Positions 2,979-15,530 of a stretch of DNA of 64,000 nucleotides are shown piece by piece (positions within the stretch are counted from its first letter, which is position 1; the number at the start of each line of letters is the position of its first letter). This DNA is from an uncultured Candidatus Saccharibacteria bacterium (GTDB lineage Bacteria; Patescibacteriota; Minisyncoccia; Phycocordibacterales; CAYSCM01): NCBI GenBank assembly GCA_964429815.1, contig CAYSCM010000001.1, forward strand, positions 224,001 through 288,000. Direction: 5' to 3'. Both the position numbers and the translations under genes were made by a program. Below the pieces are notes generated by a model, which was not told where the DNA came from, ran no database searches, and saw only the letters and a program-made list of their open reading frames with translations.

Positions 2979-3050
2979 GCCCCCGTGGTGAAATGGATAT
3001 CACAACTGGCTTCGGACCAGTTATTGTGGGTTCGAGTCCTGCCGGGGGCG
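2979..3050 (+). tRNA. tRNA-Arg (anticodon TCG)
   Basis: Hand-folded cloverleaf: acceptor GCCCCCG/CGGGGGC, D-stem GTGA/TCAC, anticodon stem ACTGG/CCAGT with loop CTTCGGA, T-arm GTGGG-TTCGAGT-CCTGC, discriminator G; begins 2 nt after the divergent cca start codon. Confidence 0.7.
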
Positions 3051-3205
3051 CAAACGGCACAAAACGCGGTGCATTTTGCGCGTTTGCGCCAGGCGGAGCG
3101 ATGTTTTGCGAGTACACAAAACCGTGAGCCGAGGCCGCGAAAATTCTGAGCGACGACGAAAAACTATTTTTGTGACCGCCTCGGCGTCGGGTGACAGATT
3201 CTAGA

Positions 3206-3233
3206 TTGAGAAAGCACTGACGCGTGCTATAGT
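3206..3233 (+). promoter_or_regulatory. sigma70-like promoter upstream of tRNA-Gly (TTGAGA-16-TATAGT)
   Basis: Sequence match to -35/-10 consensus about 20 nt upstream of tRNA 5' end. Confidence 0.5.
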
Positions 3234-3253
3234 TTCCCCGAAGTATAAAGCAG

Positions 3254-3324
3254 GCGGCCATAGTTTAGTGGTAGGACGGATCCTTGCCAAGGATCAGGTG
3301 GGAGTTCGATTCTCCCTGGCCGCA
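3254..3324 (+). tRNA. tRNA-Gly (anticodon GCC)
   Basis: Acceptor GCGGCCA/TGGCCGC, anticodon stem GATCC/GGATC with loop TTGCCAA, T-arm GGGAG-TTCGATT-CTCCC, discriminator A. Confidence 0.85.
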
Positions 3325-3461
3325 CAAAAGGACACTTCCCTACGGGGTCAGGGAGAATCGAACGGGAAGGGGTCGGGAAACGGCAGTTTCCCGCGGAGGC
3401 GGAGGAAGGCAGGCAAAGCCTCTGGAAAACCTGGGTTTCCAGAGAGTGAGATAGCGGGGCG

Positions 3462-3478
3462 TCTCCCTGGCCGCACAA
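3462..3478 (+). repeat. 17-bp direct repeat of the tRNA-Gly(GCC) 3' end (TCTCCCTGGCCGCACAA); an inverted 15-bp copy of the T-arm (CAGGGAGAATCGAAC) lies at 3340-3354
   Basis: Exact second copy 151 bp downstream of the tRNA 3' end (3311-3327); inverted partial T-arm copy in between. Confidence 0.7.
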
Positions 3479-3633
3479 TACGTAATAAACTTTTCTTACA
3501 TGGCCTGTCTCATAGAAAACTCATAATTTGAGCGTTTCTGTGGATAAATCTGTGAGTATGTGTATTAAGGACAGTCCTATAACCAAAGAATGGCTTTAAA
3601 TCCGTAAAAGTTTCACGTGAAAATTAGTTACAC

Positions 3634-4047
3634 GTGAAAATGTTACATGTGAAATGGCAATCCACAATGAACGAACTGGGAAGACTCGGAGAGGACATTG
3701 TTTGCCGCTATCTTTCTGATAGGGGGTATCGGATTGTTTCAAGGAACTATCGTAAAAAGTGGGGTGAAATTGATGTAATTACGACTAAGGGCGGAATCCT
3801 CCATTTCATTGAAGTTAAAGCTGTTTCGCGTGAAAATCTTGACTCAATTTCACAAGAAACAAATTCCTATCGTCCAGAGGACAATGCTCATCCGGAAAAG
3901 CTCAGACGCCTTGCAAGAACCGTTGAAACATATTTACTGGAAAAAGGTGTAGAAGGTGGGCAGTGGAGATTTGATGTTGCGGCTGTCTATATCGATCAGA
4001 GGAAAAAGAAGGCAAAAGTTTCTCTTCTCGAGAACGTTATTTTATAG
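3634..4047 (+). CDS. yraN: YraN/UPF0102-family endonuclease-like protein (alternative start at 3667)
   Basis: 137 aa; GE(D)IVCRYLSDRGYRIVSRNYR...GEIDVI...FIEVK pattern typical of UPF0102; no clear SD. Confidence 0.65.
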   Translation: MKMLHVKWQSTMNELGRLGEDIVCRYLSDRGYRIVSRNYRKKWGEIDVITTKGGILHFIEVKAVSRENLDSISQETNSYRPEDNAHPEKLRRLARTVETYLLEKGVEGGQWRFDVAAVYIDQRKKKAKVSLLENVIL

Positions 4048-4106
4048 GACATTATTAAGGACATGTCTTTTGGCGCTCAACCGTGCTATGATTTTGCCAA
4101 CCATGG

Positions 4107-4147
4107 GGCGTGGTGTAACGGCTAACATACCCGCGTGGGGAGCGGTT
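4107..4147 (+). pseudogene. partial tandem duplicate of the tRNA-Pro 5' half (acceptor, D-arm and anticodon stem; defective loop GTGGGGA)
   Basis: GGGGCGTGGTGTAACGGCTAACATACCCGC is repeated exactly 60 bp upstream of the intact tRNA-Pro. Confidence 0.55.
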
Positions 4148-4165
4148 TTCCTTCGAGTTCTTCGT

Positions 4166-4238
4166 CGGGGCGTGGTGTAACGGCTAACATACCCGCTTTG
4201 GGAGCGGGCGACTCCCGGTTCGAATCCGGGCGCCCCGA
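4166..4238 (+). tRNA. tRNA-Pro (anticodon TGG)
   Basis: Acceptor CGGGGCG/CGCCCCG, anticodon stem CCCGC/GCGGG with loop TTTGGGA, T-arm CCCGG-TTCGAAT-CCGGG; flanked by a 13-bp complementary extension (CTTCGTCGGGGCG / CGCCCCGACGAAG). Confidence 0.85.
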
Positions 4239-4275
4239 CGAAGCATTTGAATAGACGCGCTTAAGCATGTCTTTT

Positions 4276-5415
4276 CTATTGGGGGAGCTGGTCGGTGAGG
4301 AGCTTGGTAAGAGTCGGCGCTACGGTCGCCTGAAAAGTCGCCGCTTGCACCGCGATATCGGCGGAGAGCATGCCACGAAGAGAGGTGCCGCTTCCCGCGA
4401 TAAGAGAGCGATTTATGTGTGCAAGAGTGATGGCATGGAGGTCGCGAATGTCGGTCGTCGGGCCGTCCGAGCTTGTCGAAACGATACCCACGAGGTCGCC
4501 CTTTGAGGAAAAAACACCACCGCCTGAAGAGCCTTTTTGCGCCACAACAGAGCCGCCGATCGAAATGACATCGATGGTCGAGGTGTCGAAGGTGAACACC
4601 TCTTTGATGGTGGTATAGGCCGAACTTACATACAGGTCTCGCAAGATGGTCTCCGCTCCGAGAAAGCCCGCAGGGTAGGCGGCAACGAGCATCGTGGCAC
4701 CTACCGTGAAGGCGTTTTCCGAGGTATCTAGCGAAGTCGCGGGGAATTGCGCTGGGAGCTGGTCGCTTGGGTTGGTGGGGGCGGTCACATAGAGGAGCGC
4801 AAAGTCATTTTCTCCCGTGCCGACCGGCTCGGTACTCTTTATCTGTGGGGCATTGTCACGCACCCACTGCGGCGAAATGTAGAGGAGACCTAGCTTGTAA
4901 CGCGGATATGCTGGGCTTCCGGTGCGAGCAACGCACTCCACAAAGTTGGGCATCGGGTAGTCTTTGAGGAGAAGGTACTGGCCCACGTGGGCATTGGCAA
5001 GAATAACTCCGCGCGAGTCGATAAAGACGCCGCTGGCGGTTATAGGACTAATGACCCCGCCGTACCTCGTGGTGCAGAGAATATTGACGATAGAGGGACG
5101 AGCTACCGCGTTGACGTCAATGCTTGCGTTTGTTGGCGCGGGTGGGGGTGGTGGCGTGAGAACAGTAACTTTTTGGGTTGGGACAGGAGATGCAGACTGA
5201 GCTTTTTTTGCCTCGGGTTTTTGAGTGAGCGTGGCAGCTTGCGTGGTTGTTGCTTGTGTTTGCGCGGCGGTAGTCGCTATTGCCCGGCCTTTCTCAGGCG
5301 GGGGCGCTAGTCGGGGAGTTCCCGGCAGGAGAGTAGAAAGCAGAGCGAGTGTACCTAGAAAAATGCTGAGGAGTAGCTTTCCCGTTAGTGAGTAGATGGC
5401 GGTAAGAAGCGACAT
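4276..5415 (-). CDS. membrane-anchored trypsin-like (S1 family) serine protease with Pro/Thr-rich linker
   Basis: 379 aa; N-terminal TM helix; PPPPP and T/Q-rich linker; ANAHV (His) and GSSGGGV (Ser) catalytic-type motifs. Confidence 0.75.
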   Translation of the reverse strand: MSLLTAIYSLTGKLLLSIFLGTLALLSTLLPGTPRLAPPPEKGRAIATTAAQTQATTTQAATLTQKPEAKKAQSASPVPTQKVTVLTPPPPPAPTNASIDVNAVARPSIVNILCTTRYGGVISPITASGVFIDSRGVILANAHVGQYLLLKDYPMPNFVECVARTGSPAYPRYKLGLLYISPQWVRDNAPQIKSTEPVGTGENDFALLYVTAPTNPSDQLPAQFPATSLDTSENAFTVGATMLVAAYPAGFLGAETILRDLYVSSAYTTIKEVFTFDTSTIDVISIGGSVVAQKGSSGGGVFSSKGDLVGIVSTSSDGPTTDIRDLHAITLAHINRSLIAGSGTSLRGMLSADIAVQAATFQATVAPTLTKLLTDQLPQ

Positions 5416-5492
5416 GCGCGGTCAGTATACCAAAGAGAGTGAAGTGTTTTTCTTTTACTTTTTGTTTGCTACAGTTGCCTTCGAGACGAAAT

Positions 5493-5563
5493 GCGGGCAT
5501 AGTTTAGTGGCAAAATGGGATCCTTCCAAGATTCGGTCGCCGGTTCGATTCCGGCTGCCCGCA
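5493..5563 (+). tRNA. tRNA-Gly (anticodon TCC)
   Basis: Acceptor GCGGGCA/TGCCCGC, anticodon loop CTTCCAA, T-arm GCCGG-TTCGATT-CCGGC. Confidence 0.85.
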
Positions 5564-5604
5564 CAAAATGAAATAAGCGCCGCACAAAGGCGGCGCAGCA
5601 CAAT

Positions 5605-8859: not shown

Positions 8860-9462
8860 TTAGCGCGCTTTATACACCTCGTCGATGATGCCGTACTTGC
8901 GTGCCTCGTCTGCAGTCATCCAGTAGTCGCGCTCGGCGTCTTTCTCTACCTGTTCAGGGCTCTTCCCAGTGTTTTTCGCCAAAATCTTGTTGAGATTCTC
9001 CTTGGTGCGCAGAATGTGCTTGGCGGCGATAGCGATGTCGGTCGCCTGACCTTCGACGCCGCCCATCACTTGGTGGATCATGACCTCAGAGTTGGGAAGA
9101 GCGAAACGCTTGCCCTTGCTACCGGCGGAGAGGATGACCGCTGCCGCGGAGGCTGCTATACCGACGCACACAGTCGCGATGTCGGGCTTCACGTGGTTCA
9201 TCGTGTCGAGGATCGCTAGGCCCGCAGAGACTGAGCCGCCCGGAGAGTTTATATAGAAGGAAATGTCTTTCTTTGGGTCTTCGCTCTCTAGGAAAAGAAG
9301 TTGCGCGATGACGAGGTTTGCGGTGTGGTCATCAATAGGGCCGCCAAGGAAAATAATGCGGTCCTTGAGAAGGCGCGAGTATATGTCGAAGGCACGCTCA
9401 CCGAGGGGGGTCTTTTCGACCACCATCGGCACTAGCTGGCTGGAAAAAGAGGAGTTTTTCAT
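8860..9462 (-). CDS. clpP: ATP-dependent Clp protease proteolytic subunit
   Basis: 200 aa; ClpP fold with Ser (GIAASAAA), His (MIHQ), Asp (ERDYWM) triad context. Confidence 0.9.
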
Positions 9463-9557
9463 GGGGAGAGTCTAGCAGATTAAGGCCTATAAACAAGGAC
9501 TATTGGCAAAGCGGTCTCTACTTTTTAAGAGGCCGTTCTTCCTGCTAGACTTAAGGC

Positions 9558-9875
9558 ATGGCAAAGATGGAACAAGGGCCAAACGGAGGCGGGCTTAAGG
9601 GAAGCGAGCTCATGAAAGCTCATCCCGAGGTGTTTAATTATTTAAAAGAGAAAGTAGAACCGCAGCTAGCGGAACTCTTTGGGCCAGAAATAGAGGCCAA
9701 GCGTTACTCAGCTGAGGAGCTTTCCTCGCGCGTCGCCAACTTTATTGCGCTACGTGCTGAACAGCACAAACCGATAAAGACCAGGGAAGATGTCGATGAG
9801 TTAGCAGAGCAAGCATCATTTCAACAAATGCTTATCGATGCCGCCGCACGGCGTGATCAAAGTCTTCGCGAATAG
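9558..9875 (+). CDS. hypothetical protein (105 aa)
   Basis: ORF with codon-like composition; alternative start at 9567. Confidence 0.4.
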   Translation: MAKMEQGPNGGGLKGSELMKAHPEVFNYLKEKVEPQLAELFGPEIEAKRYSAEELSSRVANFIALRAEQHKPIKTREDVDELAEQASFQQMLIDAAARRDQSLRE

Positions 9876-9917
9876 TGTAGAAATGGAAAAGGCCTCGGAC
9901 GAATCCGAGGCCTTTTA

Positions 9918-10121
9918 CTAGTGAATCGATAAGGTTTCTGGCGCGGGCTTCAAAGACCAGCGCTTGATGAACGTGAGCAATTTCACCCGTTCGCACGGGG
10001 AGTAGCCCGCGAAGAAAAGTTGCTGCTCCGGCGTGAGCGGAAAGTCTTCTTGGAGAGCCGCAAACTCCGCCAGACATTTAGTATCGGACTTGCCGAAACC
10101 GCTTCCTTTTTTAAAATCCAT
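9918..10121 (-). CDS. hypothetical small protein (67 aa)
   Basis: Strong RBS GAGGAGG 4 nt from the ATG. Confidence 0.45.
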   Translation of the reverse strand: MDFKKGSGFGKSDTKCLAEFAALQEDFPLTPEQQLFFAGYSPCERVKLLTFIKRWSLKPAPETLSIH

Positions 10122-10285
10122 CTAGTCCTCCTCAGAACCTAAAGGTACTTTGTGCGTTTTCGAAAACCTTACAACGAATATACGGTTTTGCAAGTGCATT
10201 GTGCAAAATGTCCGTTCAACCCTACAATACCTTTATGGAAAAAATGCCTCTCCCGCAGGAAGGATCGAAAAAAGGAGAAGAGAAA

Positions 10286-10483
10286 ATGACCCGCCGTGGA
10301 TTTCTTAGCGGACTTGGAAAGTATGTTGCCGGAGCTGCGGCCATAGCTGGTGCCTCAGCCATTGCAGGGCCTATTTACAAGCCTACACAAGAGAAAAAGC
10401 TCCCGGATTTTGGCAAAGTTGACCTGGATATTAAAGAGAAAAAGCCAACTCCTCCCCAGGCGGAGGTGAAAGAAGAAAAATAG
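10286..10483 (+). CDS. small protein with twin-arginine (Tat-like) signal peptide
   Basis: MTRRGFLSGLGKYVAGAAAIAGASAIAG followed by a K/E-rich tail; RBS AAGGAG 8 nt upstream; the ORF-track start at 10199 is probably too early. Confidence 0.45.
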   Translation: MTRRGFLSGLGKYVAGAAAIAGASAIAGPIYKPTQEKKLPDFGKVDLDIKEKKPTPPQAEVKEEK

Positions 10484-10485
10484 TC

Positions 10486-11238
10486 ATGCTAAAGGAACTC
10501 CAGGACTTTGGACTCTCTGAAAAAGAAGCAAAAGTGTATCTCGCCTCACTTGAGGTTGGACGGGCAACCGCAGATCAGCTCGCGAAGCAAGCTAAAGTGA
10601 ATCGCTCGACCACGTACGTACAAATGGAGTCTCTTATGAAAAAGGGACTCATGAGTACCTACGTAAAGGGCAAGAAAACCTATTTTGCCCCCGAGTCGCC
10701 GGAGTATCTCGAGCAAATTCTTCAACGGAAAAGAAGTAATCTAGAATCAACGGCACTGGAGCTCAAAAAGAAACTCCCTGATCTGGTGCGTCTCTATGAC
10801 AGTGCCGGCGAGAGGCCATTTGTGCGTTTTTTTGACGGGAAAGATGGCATAACCGCCATGCGCGAGGAAACACTCCAGCTTCCGAGGGGAGAAACTTTTT
10901 ATGTAATGTATTCTTACGACGCACTGAGATCCCTTTATTCATCAGAAGAAATTCAGGATTTTTCAGAGCGACGTGAAAAGAAGGGTCTAAAAATTAAACT
11001 TCTTTACACTCGCAAAGATGGAAAATTTGATCCAAAAAACATCGCAGTCGACACGGAAAGACGTTTTTTCTCTCATGAGAAATTGGGACTCGATACCGAT
11101 TTTTTTATTTATGGAGATAAAGTTGCTCTTATGGCTCTAAAAGGGAAGGTGTTTGGTATTGTCATTGAAAGCGCAGTTATTGCGGACAGCTTCCGTACTA
11201 TATTTGAGCGACTCTGGGAAGGAGCTGAGGAAGAATAA
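10486..11238 (+). CDS. TrmB-family transcriptional regulator
   Basis: 250 aa; N-terminal wHTH LSEKEAKVYLASLEVGRATADQLAKQAKVNRSTTY, characteristic of TrmB. Confidence 0.8.
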   Translation: MLKELQDFGLSEKEAKVYLASLEVGRATADQLAKQAKVNRSTTYVQMESLMKKGLMSTYVKGKKTYFAPESPEYLEQILQRKRSNLESTALELKKKLPDLVRLYDSAGERPFVRFFDGKDGITAMREETLQLPRGETFYVMYSYDALRSLYSSEEIQDFSERREKKGLKIKLLYTRKDGKFDPKNIAVDTERRFFSHEKLGLDTDFFIYGDKVALMALKGKVFGIVIESAVIADSFRTIFERLWEGAEEE

Positions 11239-11278
11239 AAAAATAAAAGGCCGTGGAACGCAGAAGCATTCCACGGCC
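11236..11278 (-). terminator. rho-independent terminator oriented for the minus strand (hairpin GGCCGTGGAACGCAGAAGCATTCCACGGCC; T-run on minus strand)
   Basis: 10-bp stem; AAAAATAAAA run on the plus strand gives a T-run for a minus-strand transcript. Confidence 0.5.
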
Positions 11279-11650
11279 GGACGTTGAGCACGAACAGATG
11301 TTGGAGGCGACTAGGCTGCCCCCACAGGTCTACCGCCAGTTTACCAGCCGGACGGATCGCCTGGATCCAGTCTCATTTTGTCTGCCGCCACCTTTGGGCG
11401 GCAAAGAACTTTTTTGCCGCTTTCGCATGGCGGCCCTTCCATCAAACCCGGGTTTGGAACTGGGCTTTCCCGGCAGTACCCAGGTCGGTCAGGCGCACGC
11501 CTTAACCGATCCGCAGAAAGTCTAGCATATCGAACAAAATTTGTAAAGGTTCTGCAAAATAAGGTCAGTTAAAATTGACATTACTATTTTAAAAAATGGC
11601 TTTAAATATAGAGATTTTTATTACTTCATGATATAATTTGTCAAAAGCAC

Positions 11651-11679
11651 TTGACAAAAATATAGGCGGCGCTATAATG
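11651..11679 (+). promoter_or_regulatory. near-consensus sigma70 promoter TTGACA-16-TATAAT, overlapped by a 9-bp inverted repeat ATTTGTCAA-N6-TTGACAAAT
   Basis: Exact hexamers; lies in an AT-rich patch (11560-11680) between GC-rich segments. Confidence 0.6.
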
Positions 11680-11686
11680 CCGTTGT

Positions 11687-12840
11687 CAGTGTGAGCTAAC
11701 AGGTTGGTAACCTGCATAAGCATCTTGTTTGTCCATCCTCTGGACCCCGCAGCCATTCGCTTTGTGCAGCTGTATCGTGGGCCGCTGGACGCGGCTTTTC
11801 TTGATGCTCGGTTTCGACCTTAGCTCACCCTGTTCGTTTCACAATAACCCTGCTCGCTGCTTTCGCAGCCAGCAGTGCCCTCGGAAGAAATTCTGTGTGC
11901 ACTGTTGGCTGTGGAGAGCCAGTAGCCCCGCAAGGGGGTATAGGTGACGAAGGCGTCCTCTTCGTTGCCGGCTACTTTCGTAGCCAAGTCTCCACGTGTA
12001 TGGAAACGGTGCCCTCGGAAGGGGGACTTCACATCGTTCCTACACGGCCGAGCCCTTGCAAGGGGCAGAGTCGTTAGAAATCGATAGCGGCTTGCAACCG
12101 CGATGCGATGGAAAGTCAGGAGGCGAAGTGTACAGATCGCAAGTCTGTGCATGGATCTCCTCACGCCTGGCAAAGGACAGTGGGATCATGAAAAGATCTT
12201 GCTGATGCCAATAGTGAGGGAATCGGATGAGCGTCGGGCCATGCCCCAATCCCTGCGCCGGTGGGACGGCGCAGGTGGAAAAGGGGAGCGGTTACGCACC
12301 GCATGGAGGAAGCCCTGGCCGGGGTGGATTCCAAGAAGCTCATTCGAGGATAAAAGGCACAGCATATGCCTTCGACCCAAGGGGCGACCCAAGGGATATG
12401 CGGTCAGAACCGGCAGCTGTCAGCAACAGCGGTCCATCTGGGCAGTACATGCGCCCAGCGATGTCGGTCGGGAACATTGGCCTTATGTTCCGTCTCCCAC
12501 ATTTTCGCTTGTTCCTTCAGGTTTGTGCCAAGGGTGTCCACGGCAAAGTTGGCGGCTCTCCAGCCGCCAACGTGTCCGGCGGCATCCGGGCAACCCAGTG
12601 CACGGAGGTGCACGAAATGGATTGGTCTCGCTGAGGACCAGTGCACGTACCATCTTTTAGGGTACGGGTGCAGAGGAGTGTTGTCGCGATGCCCGCGGCC
12701 GCGCTCCTCATCAGTTGCTTCGCGAGATGTGTGTCTCGCCTGATGAGCTTGAAAGAGCGAAAAGCACAGTTCTCTATACATGCAAATTGAGTCGTTTGAA
12801 GAGGATGCTGCCGCTTCTTCCTCAAACGACTCAATCGCCA
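11687..12840 (+). ncRNA. candidate large structured noncoding RNA (about 1.15 kb with no credible ORF); RNase P RNA-like motifs GGAAAGUC (~12100), GGUGGAAAAGGGGAGCGGUUACGCACC (~12290) and CAGAACCGGC (~12405) at E. coli-like spacing
   Basis: Only short, Arg/Trp-rich overlapping ORFs in all six frames; starts just downstream of a consensus promoter; motif resemblance was judged by eye, with no covariance search. Confidence 0.3.
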
Positions 12841-12856
12841 CGGAAGGAGGGACCCG

Positions 12857-13060
12857 ATGAGCGACATTTGCGTTGTCTCCGAGAACGGGCACGTTCTCGG
12901 CACCCACTCGTGGGTGGAGGGGTTCAAGCCCCTCAAGGTGTCCAGCCGCACAAGCGAGATAGATGTGCTCGCCCACGCGCTCTATCTGGAGCGCACGGTC
13001 TCTTCGGAGGCTGGCCTCGAGTACATCGAGGTGTGGGAGAAGCGCAAGCTTCTTCGCTAG
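12857..13060 (+). CDS. hypothetical small protein (67 aa)
   Basis: RBS AAGGAGG 7 nt upstream; protein-like composition. Confidence 0.4.
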   Translation: MSDICVVSENGHVLGTHSWVEGFKPLKVSSRTSEIDVLAHALYLERTVSSEAGLEYIEVWEKRKLLR

Positions 13061-13251
13061 CGGTTATGCCGGGAGAGGAGGGGGGATCCTCGCATACCGG
13101 CGGGGGTGAAACTTCACCTTGGCAACAGAAGATTTCTCGGACCACACCCCTACATAGTCAGAGAAATCAAGTTTTGGGCGATGATGAATCGCCCTCTCCA
13201 CTGCGCACATGAATCCTTCGTGTGCGAAGACGAGATCTTTGGGAGGAAACC

Positions 13252-13569
13252 ATGACCGAATCGAGCTCCGTGCAGAGCGCGCCCCGCACGTGCGTCTCCT
13301 GCGGGAGGCCGGGCGCCAAGTGGGATCTCAGTGTTGGCGGGAAACTGCCGGTGCCGGCCCACAAACCCTGCGCGGAGATAATCCGCGCGACCGCGCCGCA
13401 AGGTACGGTCGTGACGGTCAAACCGTCACCCGAACTCCGCGAGGAGTGGGCTCGTGAAAACGCCCGCAAGTTCTGGGAAGGCCAGAACAAACTCGGCGCG
13501 GCCTTACAAGCCGCAGGGGTCACGCTGCCGAAATCCGGAAACGGATCGCTCGGCGGGGGTGGGAGCTAA
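13252..13569 (+). CDS. hypothetical small protein (105 aa) with CxxC-x25-C
   Basis: RBS GGGAGGA; internal start of ORF 13222-13569. Confidence 0.35.
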   Translation: MTESSSVQSAPRTCVSCGRPGAKWDLSVGGKLPVPAHKPCAEIIRATAPQGTVVTVKPSPELREEWARENARKFWEGQNKLGAALQAAGVTLPKSGNGSLGGGGS

Positions 13570-13678
13570 TCCATCCTGGCAACAGAAACAAAAATCCGCG
13601 TGGCGAACGTTCCTCGCCATTTCTTTTGAGTTCGCGAATCCTCGTGGGCTCATCGAAATAGCTCTTTGGGAGATACAG

Positions 13679-13996
13679 ATGCGCTACGTTGCAAATGCTT
13701 TTTCACTCAACATGCTTGCCTCGCTTTCGGCAACAATCAACTCGGTCGCGATCGGCGCGCGTGAGGCCGCCGCGTGGGCCGAGGGTGCTCAGTCGATCGT
13801 GGGTCACCCCGATACGGCCGCAGTGATGAGTGCGACGCTCGGGACCCCCGTTCAGTTCAATCGCGAGAGTGTGCAGCTCAGGCCGGGCGACGAGCTTCTT
13901 GTGGGCCAATACCGTGGCCCTCGGCTCCCGGAAGGGGCAAAAGTCCTTCCGGAAGGCGCTCGCTTCGAGTGGGCGCACGTCAAAATCATCGCGTAA
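13679..13996 (+). CDS. hypothetical small protein (105 aa)
   Basis: Internal start of ORF 13454-13996 with GGGAGA RBS; upstream part is Arg-rich. Confidence 0.3.
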   Translation: MRYVANAFSLNMLASLSATINSVAIGAREAAAWAEGAQSIVGHPDTAAVMSATLGTPVQFNRESVQLRPGDELLVGQYRGPRLPEGAKVLPEGARFEWAHVKIIA

Positions 13997-14450
13997 GCGT
14001 ATTCACAAGGCGAGGTCCCAGAACGTGTCCGACTATATATCTCGGACACTACCTACGCTGTTCGTCTGGTAGCACCAGACGTTAGGGAAAATCCTCTCCC
14101 GTAAAACAATGAGGTCAGGCTGAGGGGGCCTGTGTGTTTGCTCCGCGGACCTCCCGAAAGGAGCGTCGCGTAAAGGAACACAAAACCCCGGGCGAGTGCA
14201 CGTGTTTACTCGCCCCTCTTATCAAATGCATCAATGGTGGTGCATTTGAATGGAGGTCCACACATGGACAAGTTCGTTGCGTTTGTGCTCGCGAGGCTCT
14301 GCGCGCCGCGCAGATCCGCCTCGAAGCGAAGCGCAACGTCGAGCAGCGTTTTGCGGCATAGCGACGCAACAGCTCTTTTAAGAAAGGAGGGTCGCCATGA
14401 ACAGGCGACTAAGTACAAGCTACGCGACCATCACTCACGGGGTGGTCGCT

Positions 14451-15530
14451 TTATTTTTGAGACTCGAGAAATTCGATCGCTTTTTGGTTGGTGAGTGCGT
14501 TCGCGACATAGGCACGAACACGGTTTTCGTCAGCGCCCTTGTGGTGCTCAAGGAGGTGCTTTGCTTCACCGGCGATTTCCTCGGGAGAGGGAAGAAGGTT
14601 CTCGCGTATAGCGATTTCGTGGAGTATGAGCTGGAGCCTAGCTCTCTTTTCAGCGTCGGGGCGCCACTCTTTTCTCAAATCATCCTCGCTCTTTTTTATA
14701 TGCGCAAGATAGTCATCGAACTTTCCGCCGAAGCGCTCAACATCGTCGCGAAACTGCAGGAGGAGCTTTCCGAGCTCGCTTTCAACGAGAAGCTCAGGGG
14801 TATCAAAGGAGCTTCCCGCAACGATGGCTTCCATAATGGCACTTCGACGCGATTCGATGGCCCGGCGGCGTTTGTCTTTCACGAGGTCCTCGCGCAGCAT
14901 CTTCTTGAACTCGTCGACGGAGGCGAAAGGACCGAGGGCTTTTACGAACTCATCGGTTATTTCGGGAAGGATTTCCTTGTCACCCTCCCTAGATGCTGAC
15001 GCATCGGGCGAACCTCCGTCTTCGGCGGAGGTTTTAGCCTTCGTCGCTTTGCTTTTGCGCAACTGCGTGAGGGCGTCGTCGAACTCTTTGTCAGTGACCT
15101 CGAACGTCTCCGGAACTTTTTCCTGTTTCATCGCGAGCTTTTTATAGTCAGGAAGAGCGATGTCCGGCTTAACGGTAACGACGATAGAAAAACCGACTGG
15201 ATTTCCCGGTGCAAGCTTGGTGATTGCGATGCGCGGCTCTCCGAGCGGTATGAGCTTGTGCTCCTCTATGAGTTTTGGATAGAGCTCAGAGAGCGCCTCC
15301 TTAGAGGCTTCTTCGAGGAGCGCCATCTCGTCGACCCGCTGGAGGACCATTTCTTTCGGGGCCCTGCCGGGACGAAAGCCGGGAAGTTTGGCCTCTTTCA
15401 CAAAGTGTTCGAGCGCATGCTCACGCAGCCGCGCTATGGTAGCGGTCGGAATTTCGCCGGTGATGATGACGATCGAGCCCTTTTCCTTCTTTACGGAAAT
15501 GTTTTCGTACATGAAATCCGAGTCTAGCAA
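14451..15530 (-). CDS. tig: trigger factor (ribosome-binding and chaperone domains; PPIase domain apparently absent)
   Basis: 359 aa; GFRPGRAPK ribosome-binding signature near the N-terminus. Confidence 0.85.
   Translation of the reverse strand: MLDSDFMYENISVKKEKGSIVIITGEIPTATIARLREHALEHFVKEAKLPGFRPGRAPKEMVLQRVDEMALLEEASKEALSELYPKLIEEHKLIPLGEPRIAITKLAPGNPVGFSIVVTVKPDIALPDYKKLAMKQEKVPETFEVTDKEFDDALTQLRKSKATKAKTSAEDGGSPDASASREGDKEILPEITDEFVKALGPFASVDEFKKMLREDLVKDKRRRAIESRRSAIMEAIVAGSSFDTPELLVESELGKLLLQFRDDVERFGGKFDDYLAHIKKSEDDLRKEWRPDAEKRARLQLILHEIAIRENLLPSPEEIAGEAKHLLEHHKGADENRVRAYVANALTNQKAIEFLESQK

Follow-up and report, generated by a model that had tools for sequence, protein, structure and literature searches.

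To our knowledge, large and intricate bacterial RNAs of unassigned function are very few (OLE, GOLLD, ROOL, raiA, and HEARO). HEARO is the guide RNA of IscB. ROOL and GOLLD, found in phages and prophages, are large orphan RNAs of the kind called "ornate" (PMC5737381, PMC12286853), and cryo-electron microscopy has shown that GOLLD, ROOL, and OLE form homo-oligomers (PMC12286853). Hammerhead ribozymes that cut the polycistronic RNAs of prophages have also been documented (Perreault et al. 2011, PMC3088659). Here we describe a locus in a 64-kb stretch of the chromosome of an uncultured member of the Patescibacteria (contig CAYSCM010000001.1; this whole stretch is referred to as the window). Between a gene for a TrmB-like regulator and a gene of 67 amino acids (aa), it very probably encodes a genuine, conserved, structured non-coding RNA that belongs to no described family and that is followed by a predicted hammerhead ribozyme. 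All coordinates are positions in the window, and L-numbers denote the metagenome contigs and loci with which it was compared. The elements of the transcription unit are as follows.

10486-11238, + strand: gene for a TrmB-like winged-helix regulator, 250 aa (Pfam PF01978, E 3.4e-14)
11556-11688, + strand: control cassette of ~130 nucleotides (nt), AT-rich, found by blastn to other TrmB-linked loci
11651-11678, + strand: sigma-70-type promoter, TTGACA-16-TATAAT, 12 of 12 consensus positions
11685-11867, + strand: 5' leader domain, ~66% identity to L121 5224-5416 (likewise in a clpP-TrmB context)
11868-12575, + strand: conserved core, 26 helices, several of them GNRA-capped
11870-11914, + strand: long hairpin P1, helix 1 of the four-core alignment A9 (17 pairs, 8 double changes, 91.9% paired)
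12218-12352, + strand: central five-way-junction domain, the most conserved part, with blocks ATGAGCGTCGGGC, AAAAGGGGAGCG, and TCCAAGAAGCTCATTC
12576-12713, + strand: 3' extension between core and ribozyme, structured and lineage-specific, with no blastn match in any fetched locus
12714-12768, + strand: type III hammerhead (Rfam RF00008, Hammerhead_3), predicted cut C12721/G12722
12786-12835, + strand: 23-bp hairpin, 5'-terminal in the downstream mRNA, no U tract (inverted repeat I3)

The RNA resembles ROOL and GOLLD in its size class (~600 to 800 nt), its many covarying helices, its GNRA caps, and its conserved junction strands. Like them, it is found in accessory or virus-like DNA and has neither a fixed protein partner nor an assigned function. 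It differs from them in several respects. Neither family matched it in sequence or structure at E ≤ 10, it occurs in Patescibacteria rather than in Bacillota or lake phages, and it always stands behind a TrmB-linked promoter/operator cassette. Of the four versions whose contigs extend to the 3' end of the RNA, two end at a hammerhead. What defines ROOL and GOLLD structurally is that they form multimers. In the literature we found no description of such an RNA, and none of this kind for Patescibacteria.

A reading made from the letters of the window alone, before any search (the sequence-only reading), had described 11651-12850 as an ORF-free region downstream of a textbook promoter and as a candidate for a large structured RNA. 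This description held in its main points. The promoter is the sole 12/12 match within 10000-14500, where by our arithmetic ~0.02 such matches with a 16- to 18-nt spacer would be expected per 64 kb. The extent needs correction: a large RNA does lie in the region, and the last ~140 nt belong to the hammerhead, the 23-bp hairpin, and the ribosome-binding site of the 67-aa gene. The segment directly 3' of the promoter (11685-12856) is non-coding. Its open reading frames (ORFs) reach 185 aa (12103-12660, + strand) and 190 aa (12404-12976, - strand), overlap one another, and are rich in Arg and Trp. None of them matched Pfam or PHROG, and the 185-aa ORF had no relative but itself among 1.84 billion representative proteins. 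In the closest pair of homologues, all six insertions or deletions were of lengths that are not multiples of 3 (7 of 12 in the lowest comparison). Mismatches were spread evenly over the three codon phases with no 3-nt periodicity, and every frame was broken by 3 to 12 stops in each homologue. The G+C content was 58.0% in 11685-12721, compared to 54.6% in the window and 47.1% in the upstream spacer.

Four other versions of the RNA were found in Patescibacteria metagenome contigs: L015, L126, L118, and, in part, L121. The first three share the ~650-nt core (window 11868-12575) at 47 to 73% identity. In L015 (and likewise in L016-L018), a stretch of ~620 to 635 nt downstream of a small gene is 63% identical to window 11908-12519 (blastn E 3e-42); this stretch is ORF-free and ends at an intrinsic terminator, and the core is bracketed by terminators. 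Sampling was anchored on the TrmB-like gene and comprised 80 loci from a scan of JGI metagenomes together with eight look-ups, in a large collection, of the closest TrmB-like proteins. The JGI loci yielded L118 as the sole further copy (nhmmer E 1e-12). The look-ups yielded L126 (nhmmer E 3e-84) and L121, which has the clpP-TrmB context of the window, the 5' leader, and the first hairpin, at which point the contig ends. A covariance model of the central domain (R1) scored the window at 158 bits, L015 at 153, L126 at 92, and L118 at 41 (E 2e-8). A second model built from four sequences (R2) found the RNA in the window and in 4 of 95 other loci (0.78 Mb, fetched by several routes), and the remaining sampled loci were negative with nhmmer, R1, and R2. 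BLAST searches for DNA homologues in phage and plasmid collections returned none. Exact-pattern scans of IMG/VR gave no copy of the RNA (8 chance matches were rejected by R2, and the others were unrelated phage promoters), and all 12 matches from one pattern scan of GTDB species genomes were chance matches that nhmmer rejected; the genome of the window itself is either absent from the GTDB representatives or no match to the pattern collection. Three Logan runs held copies identical to the window, without variation. Within the collections searched, the RNA family is real but rare.

We then considered the fold. The segment 11685-12680 gave -452.8 kcal/mol on the + strand (z = -6.3) and -398 kcal/mol on the - strand (z = -5.4), a far more stable fold than shuffled sequence gives. 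Folding of L118 as a single sequence gave z = -9.6 on the + strand versus -3.9 on the - strand; L118 is the most divergent version, and this provides independent support for the structure. The four cores were aligned with plain MAFFT (A9), and the consensus fold that RNAalifold computed from them contained 144 pairs, with 89.6% of the cells being standard pairs. When the partners were slid by 1 to 3 columns, this fraction fell to 38 to 46%. In A9, 64 pairs had changed on both sides, compared to 8 to 22 in the slid controls, and none of 500 column shuffles reached any of these pairing measures. Compensatory changes on this scale, together with the homologues themselves, support the proposal of a large structured RNA in the sequence-only reading. 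The alignment of the central domain, which was fitted to a model (A7), gave 34 pairs at 89.8% paired, 17 of which had changed on both sides; slid controls gave 37 to 48%, and none of 500 shuffles was as good. The GNRA caps read GCAA or GUAA in some hairpins and GGAA, GAGA, or GAAA in others, and one cap, CGCAAG, is invariant. Most of the longest blocks without any change form junction strands or belong to a single conserved helix. The 3' strand of P1 runs into the invariant GCUGUGGAGAG, which can pair upstream with CUUUCCACAGC (in P1) or downstream with UCUCCAC (11989-11995), the partner that appeared in a two-sequence fold. At the other end, the hairpin 12532-12587 (inverted repeat I4) reaches into the 3' extension. 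The RNA has the features by which large structured ("ornate") non-coding RNAs, a kind defined by description and not by homology, are recognized: a length above 500 nt, no coding capacity, covarying helices, and conserved unpaired blocks.

Several other identities for the region have to be weighed, among them the RNase P RNA that the sequence-only reading had put forward, with GOLLD, ROOL, an OLE-like RNA, or a decayed gene as its substitutes. Rfam 15 was run over the whole window at the gathering score and over the region 11300-13100 and the core 11880-12580 at E ≤ 10. At the gathering score, only four tRNAs matched in the window, and no large-RNA family was significant. At E ≤ 10, the region and the core matched no RNase P (RNaseP_bact_a/b or RNaseP_arch), GOLLD, ROOL, OLE, transfer-messenger RNA, 6S, or group I or II intron model, even when the 700-nt core was searched by itself. 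Apart from the hammerhead described below, the one credible match, the hits in the region at this threshold (eukaryotic microRNA, small nucleolar RNA, and long non-coding RNA families and twister-P3) were weak (E 0.02 to 5.1), scored far under the gathering thresholds, and are best taken as chance. What spoke for RNase P were three motifs, GGAAAGU, GGUGGAAAAGGGGAGCGG, and GGUCAGAAC, that resemble its conserved regions CR-I, CR-II/III, and CR-V at a spacing similar to that in M1 RNA. The motifs are where they had been placed (12110-12120, 12274-12303, and 12403-12419), and each coincides in part with a block that the window and L015 share without change (GGAAAGT, AAAAGGGGAGCG, and GGTCA next to 12402). 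In the consensus fold, GGAAAGU and GGUCARA are unpaired junction strands beside helices 7, 10, 24, and 25, while the remaining one (12274-12303, AAAAGGGGAGCG) lies partly paired in the five-way junction. The new RNA shares with M1 three similar and similarly spaced junction motifs and the character of a large RNA with GNRA loops. It differs in having no covariance-model match, another helix topology, and no P4. The strands that would form P4 (GGAAAGUCC with ACAGAACCCGGC) read GGAAAGUY and GGUCARAG and are by inspection non-complementary in all four aligned sequences. The locus is accessory rather than universal: it is missing from the closest syntenic relative and from 91 of the 95 other loci scanned with R2, and the RNA shifts its position relative to neighboring genes from locus to locus. 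A housekeeping role does not fit, because the island that carries the RNA is absent at the syntenic tig-clpP site. We give next to no credence to a divergent or mobile-element-borne RNase P RNA; a plausible-looking motif match was misleading here. Scarcely more credible are a decayed protein gene or genes, a degenerate intron, or another known ribozyme that the Rfam models missed. The 185- and 190-aa ORFs, one of which gene callers have annotated in public contigs, would suit a decayed gene, and group I introns are abundant in Patescibacteria (PMC13011429). The decayed gene is contradicted by the missing relatives, the broken frames, and the flat codon phases, and by compensatory changes that preserve RNA helices instead. 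As for an intron, no host gene is interrupted: the RNA is flanked by a promoter and by small ORFs that are intact. An Obelisk or viroid-like element (~1 kb with a type III hammerhead) was likewise rejected, since the DNA is chromosomal, no hammerhead lies on the minus strand, and the 185-aa ORF lacks conservation.

The hammerhead at the 3' end, which the sequence-only reading had missed, scored 31.5 bits. Its E value was 2.5e-4 when the region was searched and 0.0089 when all 4,227 families were run over the whole window. Its catalytic core is complete, with CUGAUGA at 12740-12746, GAAA at 12759-12762, C17 at C12721, and a paired U16.1-A15.1. A script counted stems of 8, 4, and 5 bp; by hand, stem I has ~6 bp with a UGUGU loop, stem II is capped by GAAA, and stem III, the open one, has 5 bp. 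The motif is conserved: in L118 (2789-2839) a hammerhead has the same layout and position, directly 5' of the ribosome-binding site of the next gene, and all three of its stems have changed in a compensatory way. Across six related hammerheads in five loci, all three stems differ and pairing is kept. These related hammerheads scored 24 to 43 bits, all below the gathering score, with intact cores and covarying stems. A pattern search of ~0.7 Mb found hammerheads on the strand of the coding direction only and none on the - strand. The 3' end of the RNA is marked by a predicted ribozyme in the window and L118 and by a terminator in L015; L126 has no clear 3'-end signal (no hammerhead and only a weak terminator-like hairpin). 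No second ribozyme or tRNA-like element, as circularization would need, was found at the 5' end. The 23-bp hairpin just downstream of the ribozyme (-29 kcal/mol, z = -7.1) may stabilize the downstream mRNA.

As in the prophages studied previously (PMC3088659), a hammerhead with a canonical core here lies between parts of a transcription unit in virus-like DNA, and the related loci L101 and L106 likewise hold hammerhead pairs that flank single small genes. The difference is that the upstream product of the predicted cut is a large conserved non-coding RNA and not an mRNA; we did not find a hammerhead that frees such an RNA described in the literature. The match here also falls below the gathering score, and an alternative fold could mask the core. 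Elsewhere among the loci compared, type III hammerheads occur in L106 (9004-9072 and 9611-9665), L101 (4374-4424 and 4845-4893), and L094 (7759-7811); there they lie to either side of lone small ORFs (137 aa and 61 aa) that follow TrmB-like genes. L094 also has an AdoCbl riboswitch match on the - strand (4289-4442) of 45.7 bits, just below the gathering score of 50 (E 1.8e-5).

At its 5' end, the RNA is preceded by a control cassette that recurs in other loci. The TrmB-like gene is the sole protein gene adjoining the RNA in all five versions, with homologues 33 to 63% identical, and the TrmB-linked promoter cassette is the sole constant neighbor of the RNA. At E ≤ 1e-30 the TrmB-like protein had 489 relatives, and the organism names that the source gave among the 120 listed were all Patescibacteria. 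By blastn, the cassette matched ~30 loci fetched through TrmB (~25 after near-identical copies were merged) at 63 to 80% identity, including L006, L014, L041-L052, L118, and L122-L131 among others, and the promoter itself is kept in L006, L014/L015, L118, L126, and others. The regular expression TTGAC-N16-19-TANANT-N4-8-TGTCA matched downstream of TrmB-like genes in ~20 loci. Judged by its spacing from the promoter, transcription is predicted to start near G11685. One palindrome, TGTCAA-N6-TTGACA (11639-11656), overlies the -35 hexamer, and another lies at the start site, where the cassette form is TGTCA-N8-TGACA and the window (11684-11701) reads TGTCA-N8-TAACA. These palindromes look like operators, most simply for the adjacent TrmB-like protein, which presumably represses the promoter. 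In L122-L125 the cassette occurs twice, in opposite orientations, and flanks the TrmB gene on both sides. Promoter-like repeats of another kind, without relation to the large RNA, occur in the large IMG/VR phage contigs L019-L028 (e.g., UViG_3300028797_000168 and 3300021256_000331): TTGACAAA-N-TATAAT-N-TGTCAGGAGGG is present in many copies, and what comes after each copy is partly conserved.

The leader of the window (the first ~180 nt) is common to the window and L121 only and is not conserved in L015, L126, or L118. The two-sequence consensus fold of the window and L121 leaders has 48 pairs, 7 of them changed on both sides. Within it, ~95 to 120 nt into the transcript, a terminator-like hairpin (11779-11805; 7 bp, 5 of them G-C) is followed by the U tract UUUUCUUGAU, which is kept in L121; this hairpin may be an attenuator. 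Elements of the L006 type share the promoter and encode a relative of the 67-aa protein, and their leader of ~545 nt is unrelated. In L047, L052, L122, and L127, a "type B" leader of ~1 kb that begins with AUCAAGUUUGACAC and holds no called gene occupies the ~0.9 to 1 kb after the promoter, and a "type A" leader of ~190 nt is common to L006 3993-4180 and L126 6218-6405. Neither type holds a called gene, and both may be further RNA elements.

On balance, we think it somewhat more likely than not that the large RNA is a trans-acting product that the hammerhead releases. In such a pathway, transcription would begin at the strong sigma-70-type promoter of the TrmB-linked, presumably repressed cassette, and the transcript would fold into P1, the GNRA-capped hairpins, and the central five-way junction with its invariant purine-rich junction strands. 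The type III hammerhead would then sever the downstream mRNA, which encodes the 67-aa protein and the products of later genes, after C12721, leaving the large RNA with a 2',3'-cyclic phosphate and the mRNA with a 5'-OH followed by the stabilizing hairpin. The primary product would measure ~1,040 nt (11685-12721), including the ~650-nt conserved core. By analogy with GOLLD and ROOL, the freed RNA might act in trans as a scaffold, a multimeric assembly, or a ribozyme. A precedent of a kind exists in the CI RNA of satellite phage P4 and the C4 RNA of phages P1 and P7, immunity RNAs that are processed from the leader of an early operon. Those RNAs measure ~80 nt, work as antisense RNAs, and owe their processing to RNases of the host. 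The likeness lies in a mobile-element transcript, early and under repressor control, from whose 5' portion a functional RNA is cut out; the new RNA differs in being ~10 times larger and, as predicted, cut by its own ribozyme. On reading the locus we noticed no target repeats of the P4 CI or C4 kind, and between the RNA region and the rest of the island a repeat scan of 9300-14700 listed nothing beyond short inverted matches that are imperfect (14 to 30 nt, 70 to 93% complementary).

The main competitor, which we rate as rather unlikely, is a long cis-acting leader (an attenuator, a riboswitch, or a processive-antitermination RNA) that controls read-through into the island genes. The RNA does lie directly after the promoter, ahead of the first gene, in the window, L121, and L118. 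The terminator-like hairpin of the 5' leader, with its U tract shared by L121, would also be at home in a regulator, as would the invariant GCUGUGGAGAG with its two mutually exclusive conserved partners, an arrangement that is switch-like; and other TrmB-linked promoters precede long conserved leaders of other types. However, a ~650-nt core of 26 helices far exceeds known cis-regulators. The core follows the first small gene in L015 and L126, with terminators on both sides of it in L015. The predicted self-cleaving ribozyme parts the RNA from the mRNA in the window and L118, and the attenuator-like part of the leader is not conserved together with the core in L015, L126, and L118. Given the variable place of the RNA and the size and complexity of its core, a free-standing RNA fits better than a cis-acting leader, and the 5' leader of the window could still have a regulatory role of its own.

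Several observations weigh against a released, trans-acting RNA or against parts of its structure. The terminator-like site would suit a cis-regulatory role for at least that part of the 5' leader. The hammerhead scores below the Rfam gathering score (31.5 vs 48.5 bits), and L015 and L126 have no hammerhead. Directly 5' of the ribozyme, CUCAUCAG (12706-12713) is fully complementary to the ribozyme core CUGAUGAG, and the alternative hairpin (12706-12747) is predicted at -25.5 kcal/mol versus -15.7 for the active fold and sequesters the core. This masking pairing is absent from L118 and may be incidental or a form of local control. Only four full sequences are at hand, and identity between two of them, L015 and L126, is 73%. 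One and the same alignment served to derive the consensus structure and to test it, and A7 was fitted to a model, so that the pair counts lean towards structure. Covariation cannot choose between the two partners of GCUGUGGAGAG, because both are conserved, and the long-range pairing ATGAGCGTC/GAAGCTCAT competes with GTCGGGCC/GGTCCRKC for the same nucleotides. Finally, the island of the window itself has no recombinase, and the repeat scan found no convincing att-like direct repeats at its borders; the label "mobile" consequently derives from comparison with other loci only.

The setting of the RNA is a bacterial chromosome. The window encodes RNase Y, ClpP, trigger factor, NusA, pyrophosphatase, PilB/PilC, PGK, RecJ, ComEC, EF-G, EF-Tu, and four tRNAs, and the close homologues of its trigger factor and TrmB-like protein are named solely as Patescibacteria or Parcubacteria-group. 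The tRNA genes (Arg-TCG, Gly-GCC, Pro-TGG, and Gly-TCC) are interspersed with a trypsin-like protease gene at 2979-5564, upstream of the RNase Y and ClpP genes. The RNA lies in a gap of ~5 kb between clpP and tig that is filled with genes on the + strand, in the order 105-aa ORF, 94-aa ORF, TrmB-like regulator, ORF-free region, 67-aa gene, zinc-ribbon-like ORF (105 aa), and DUF1874 gene. The remaining landmarks are as follows.

8860-9462, - strand: clpP
12857-13060, + strand: 67-aa gene, the first gene 3' of the ribozyme, with a GGAGG ribosome-binding site at 12844-12850
13679-13996, + strand: gene for a DUF1874/STIV B116-like protein of 105 aa (Pfam PF08960)
14451-15530, - strand: tig

In the closest syntenic relative (L134), trigger factor is 74% identical as protein, clpP is 80% identical as DNA, and the order from pilC to RNase Y is the same. 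There, tig and clpP are ~400 bp apart (L134 11050-11455) with one unrelated 67-aa ORF between them, and the island (9500-14400) is absent. Because this relative has just ~400 bp between tig and clpP, the segment that bears the RNA is an accessory insertion. Related cassettes elsewhere adjoin large serine recombinases, and the island is probably derived from a mobile element or a virus. In L122-L125 (e.g., L122 1335-4373), the TrmB-like gene is directly preceded by genes for a Ro60/TROVE-vWA protein of 526 aa and for a large serine recombinase; this unit may be a mobile element with an RNA-binding protein of the Rsr type.

Scans of the island genes with Pfam, PADLOC, and NCBIfam found no gene resembling those for OapA and OapB, the protein partners of OLE, and the notable matches were of the TrmB and DUF1874/Csx16 types. 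The 67-aa protein has two other clusters among 5.8 billion proteins, at 52 to 59% identity, and on the contigs of both, a TrmB-like gene, the promoter, and the small gene form a module as in the window. Its homologue in L015 lies upstream of the RNA, unlike in the window. The protein encoded at 13679-13996 matches the PADLOC Csx16 model (E 4.6e-10) and the PDB entries 2j6b, 2x4i, 2j85, and 6scf. We take DUF1874/STIV B116-like proteins to be the AcrIII-1/Crn2 family of cyclic-oligoadenylate ring nucleases, so this gene in the island of the RNA looks like an anti-type-III-CRISPR gene. Together with a layout like that of an early operon, it suggests, speculatively, a role in conflict between the element and its host.

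These results point to an undescribed family of large structured RNA that appears to be coupled to a ribozyme and to a recognizable regulatory cassette. Each of the earlier large orphan RNAs proved informative, and this one comes from the Patescibacteria, ultra-small and mostly uncultured bacteria. Its 3' end is set in two lineages by a predicted self-cleaving ribozyme, which would give a clean, testable product, and the alignment, the covariance model, and the five loci make experiments possible now. Going further, it is conceivable, though we hold it to be doubtful, that the RNA represents a new class of large functional RNA, a ribozyme or self-assembling machine specific to Patescibacteria mobile or viral elements, that is expressed from the repressor-controlled early promoter of the element, freed by its own hammerhead, and accompanied by anti-defense genes. 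If this is true, the RNA would play its part in the conflict of the element with its minimal-genome host, or in the takeover of that host.

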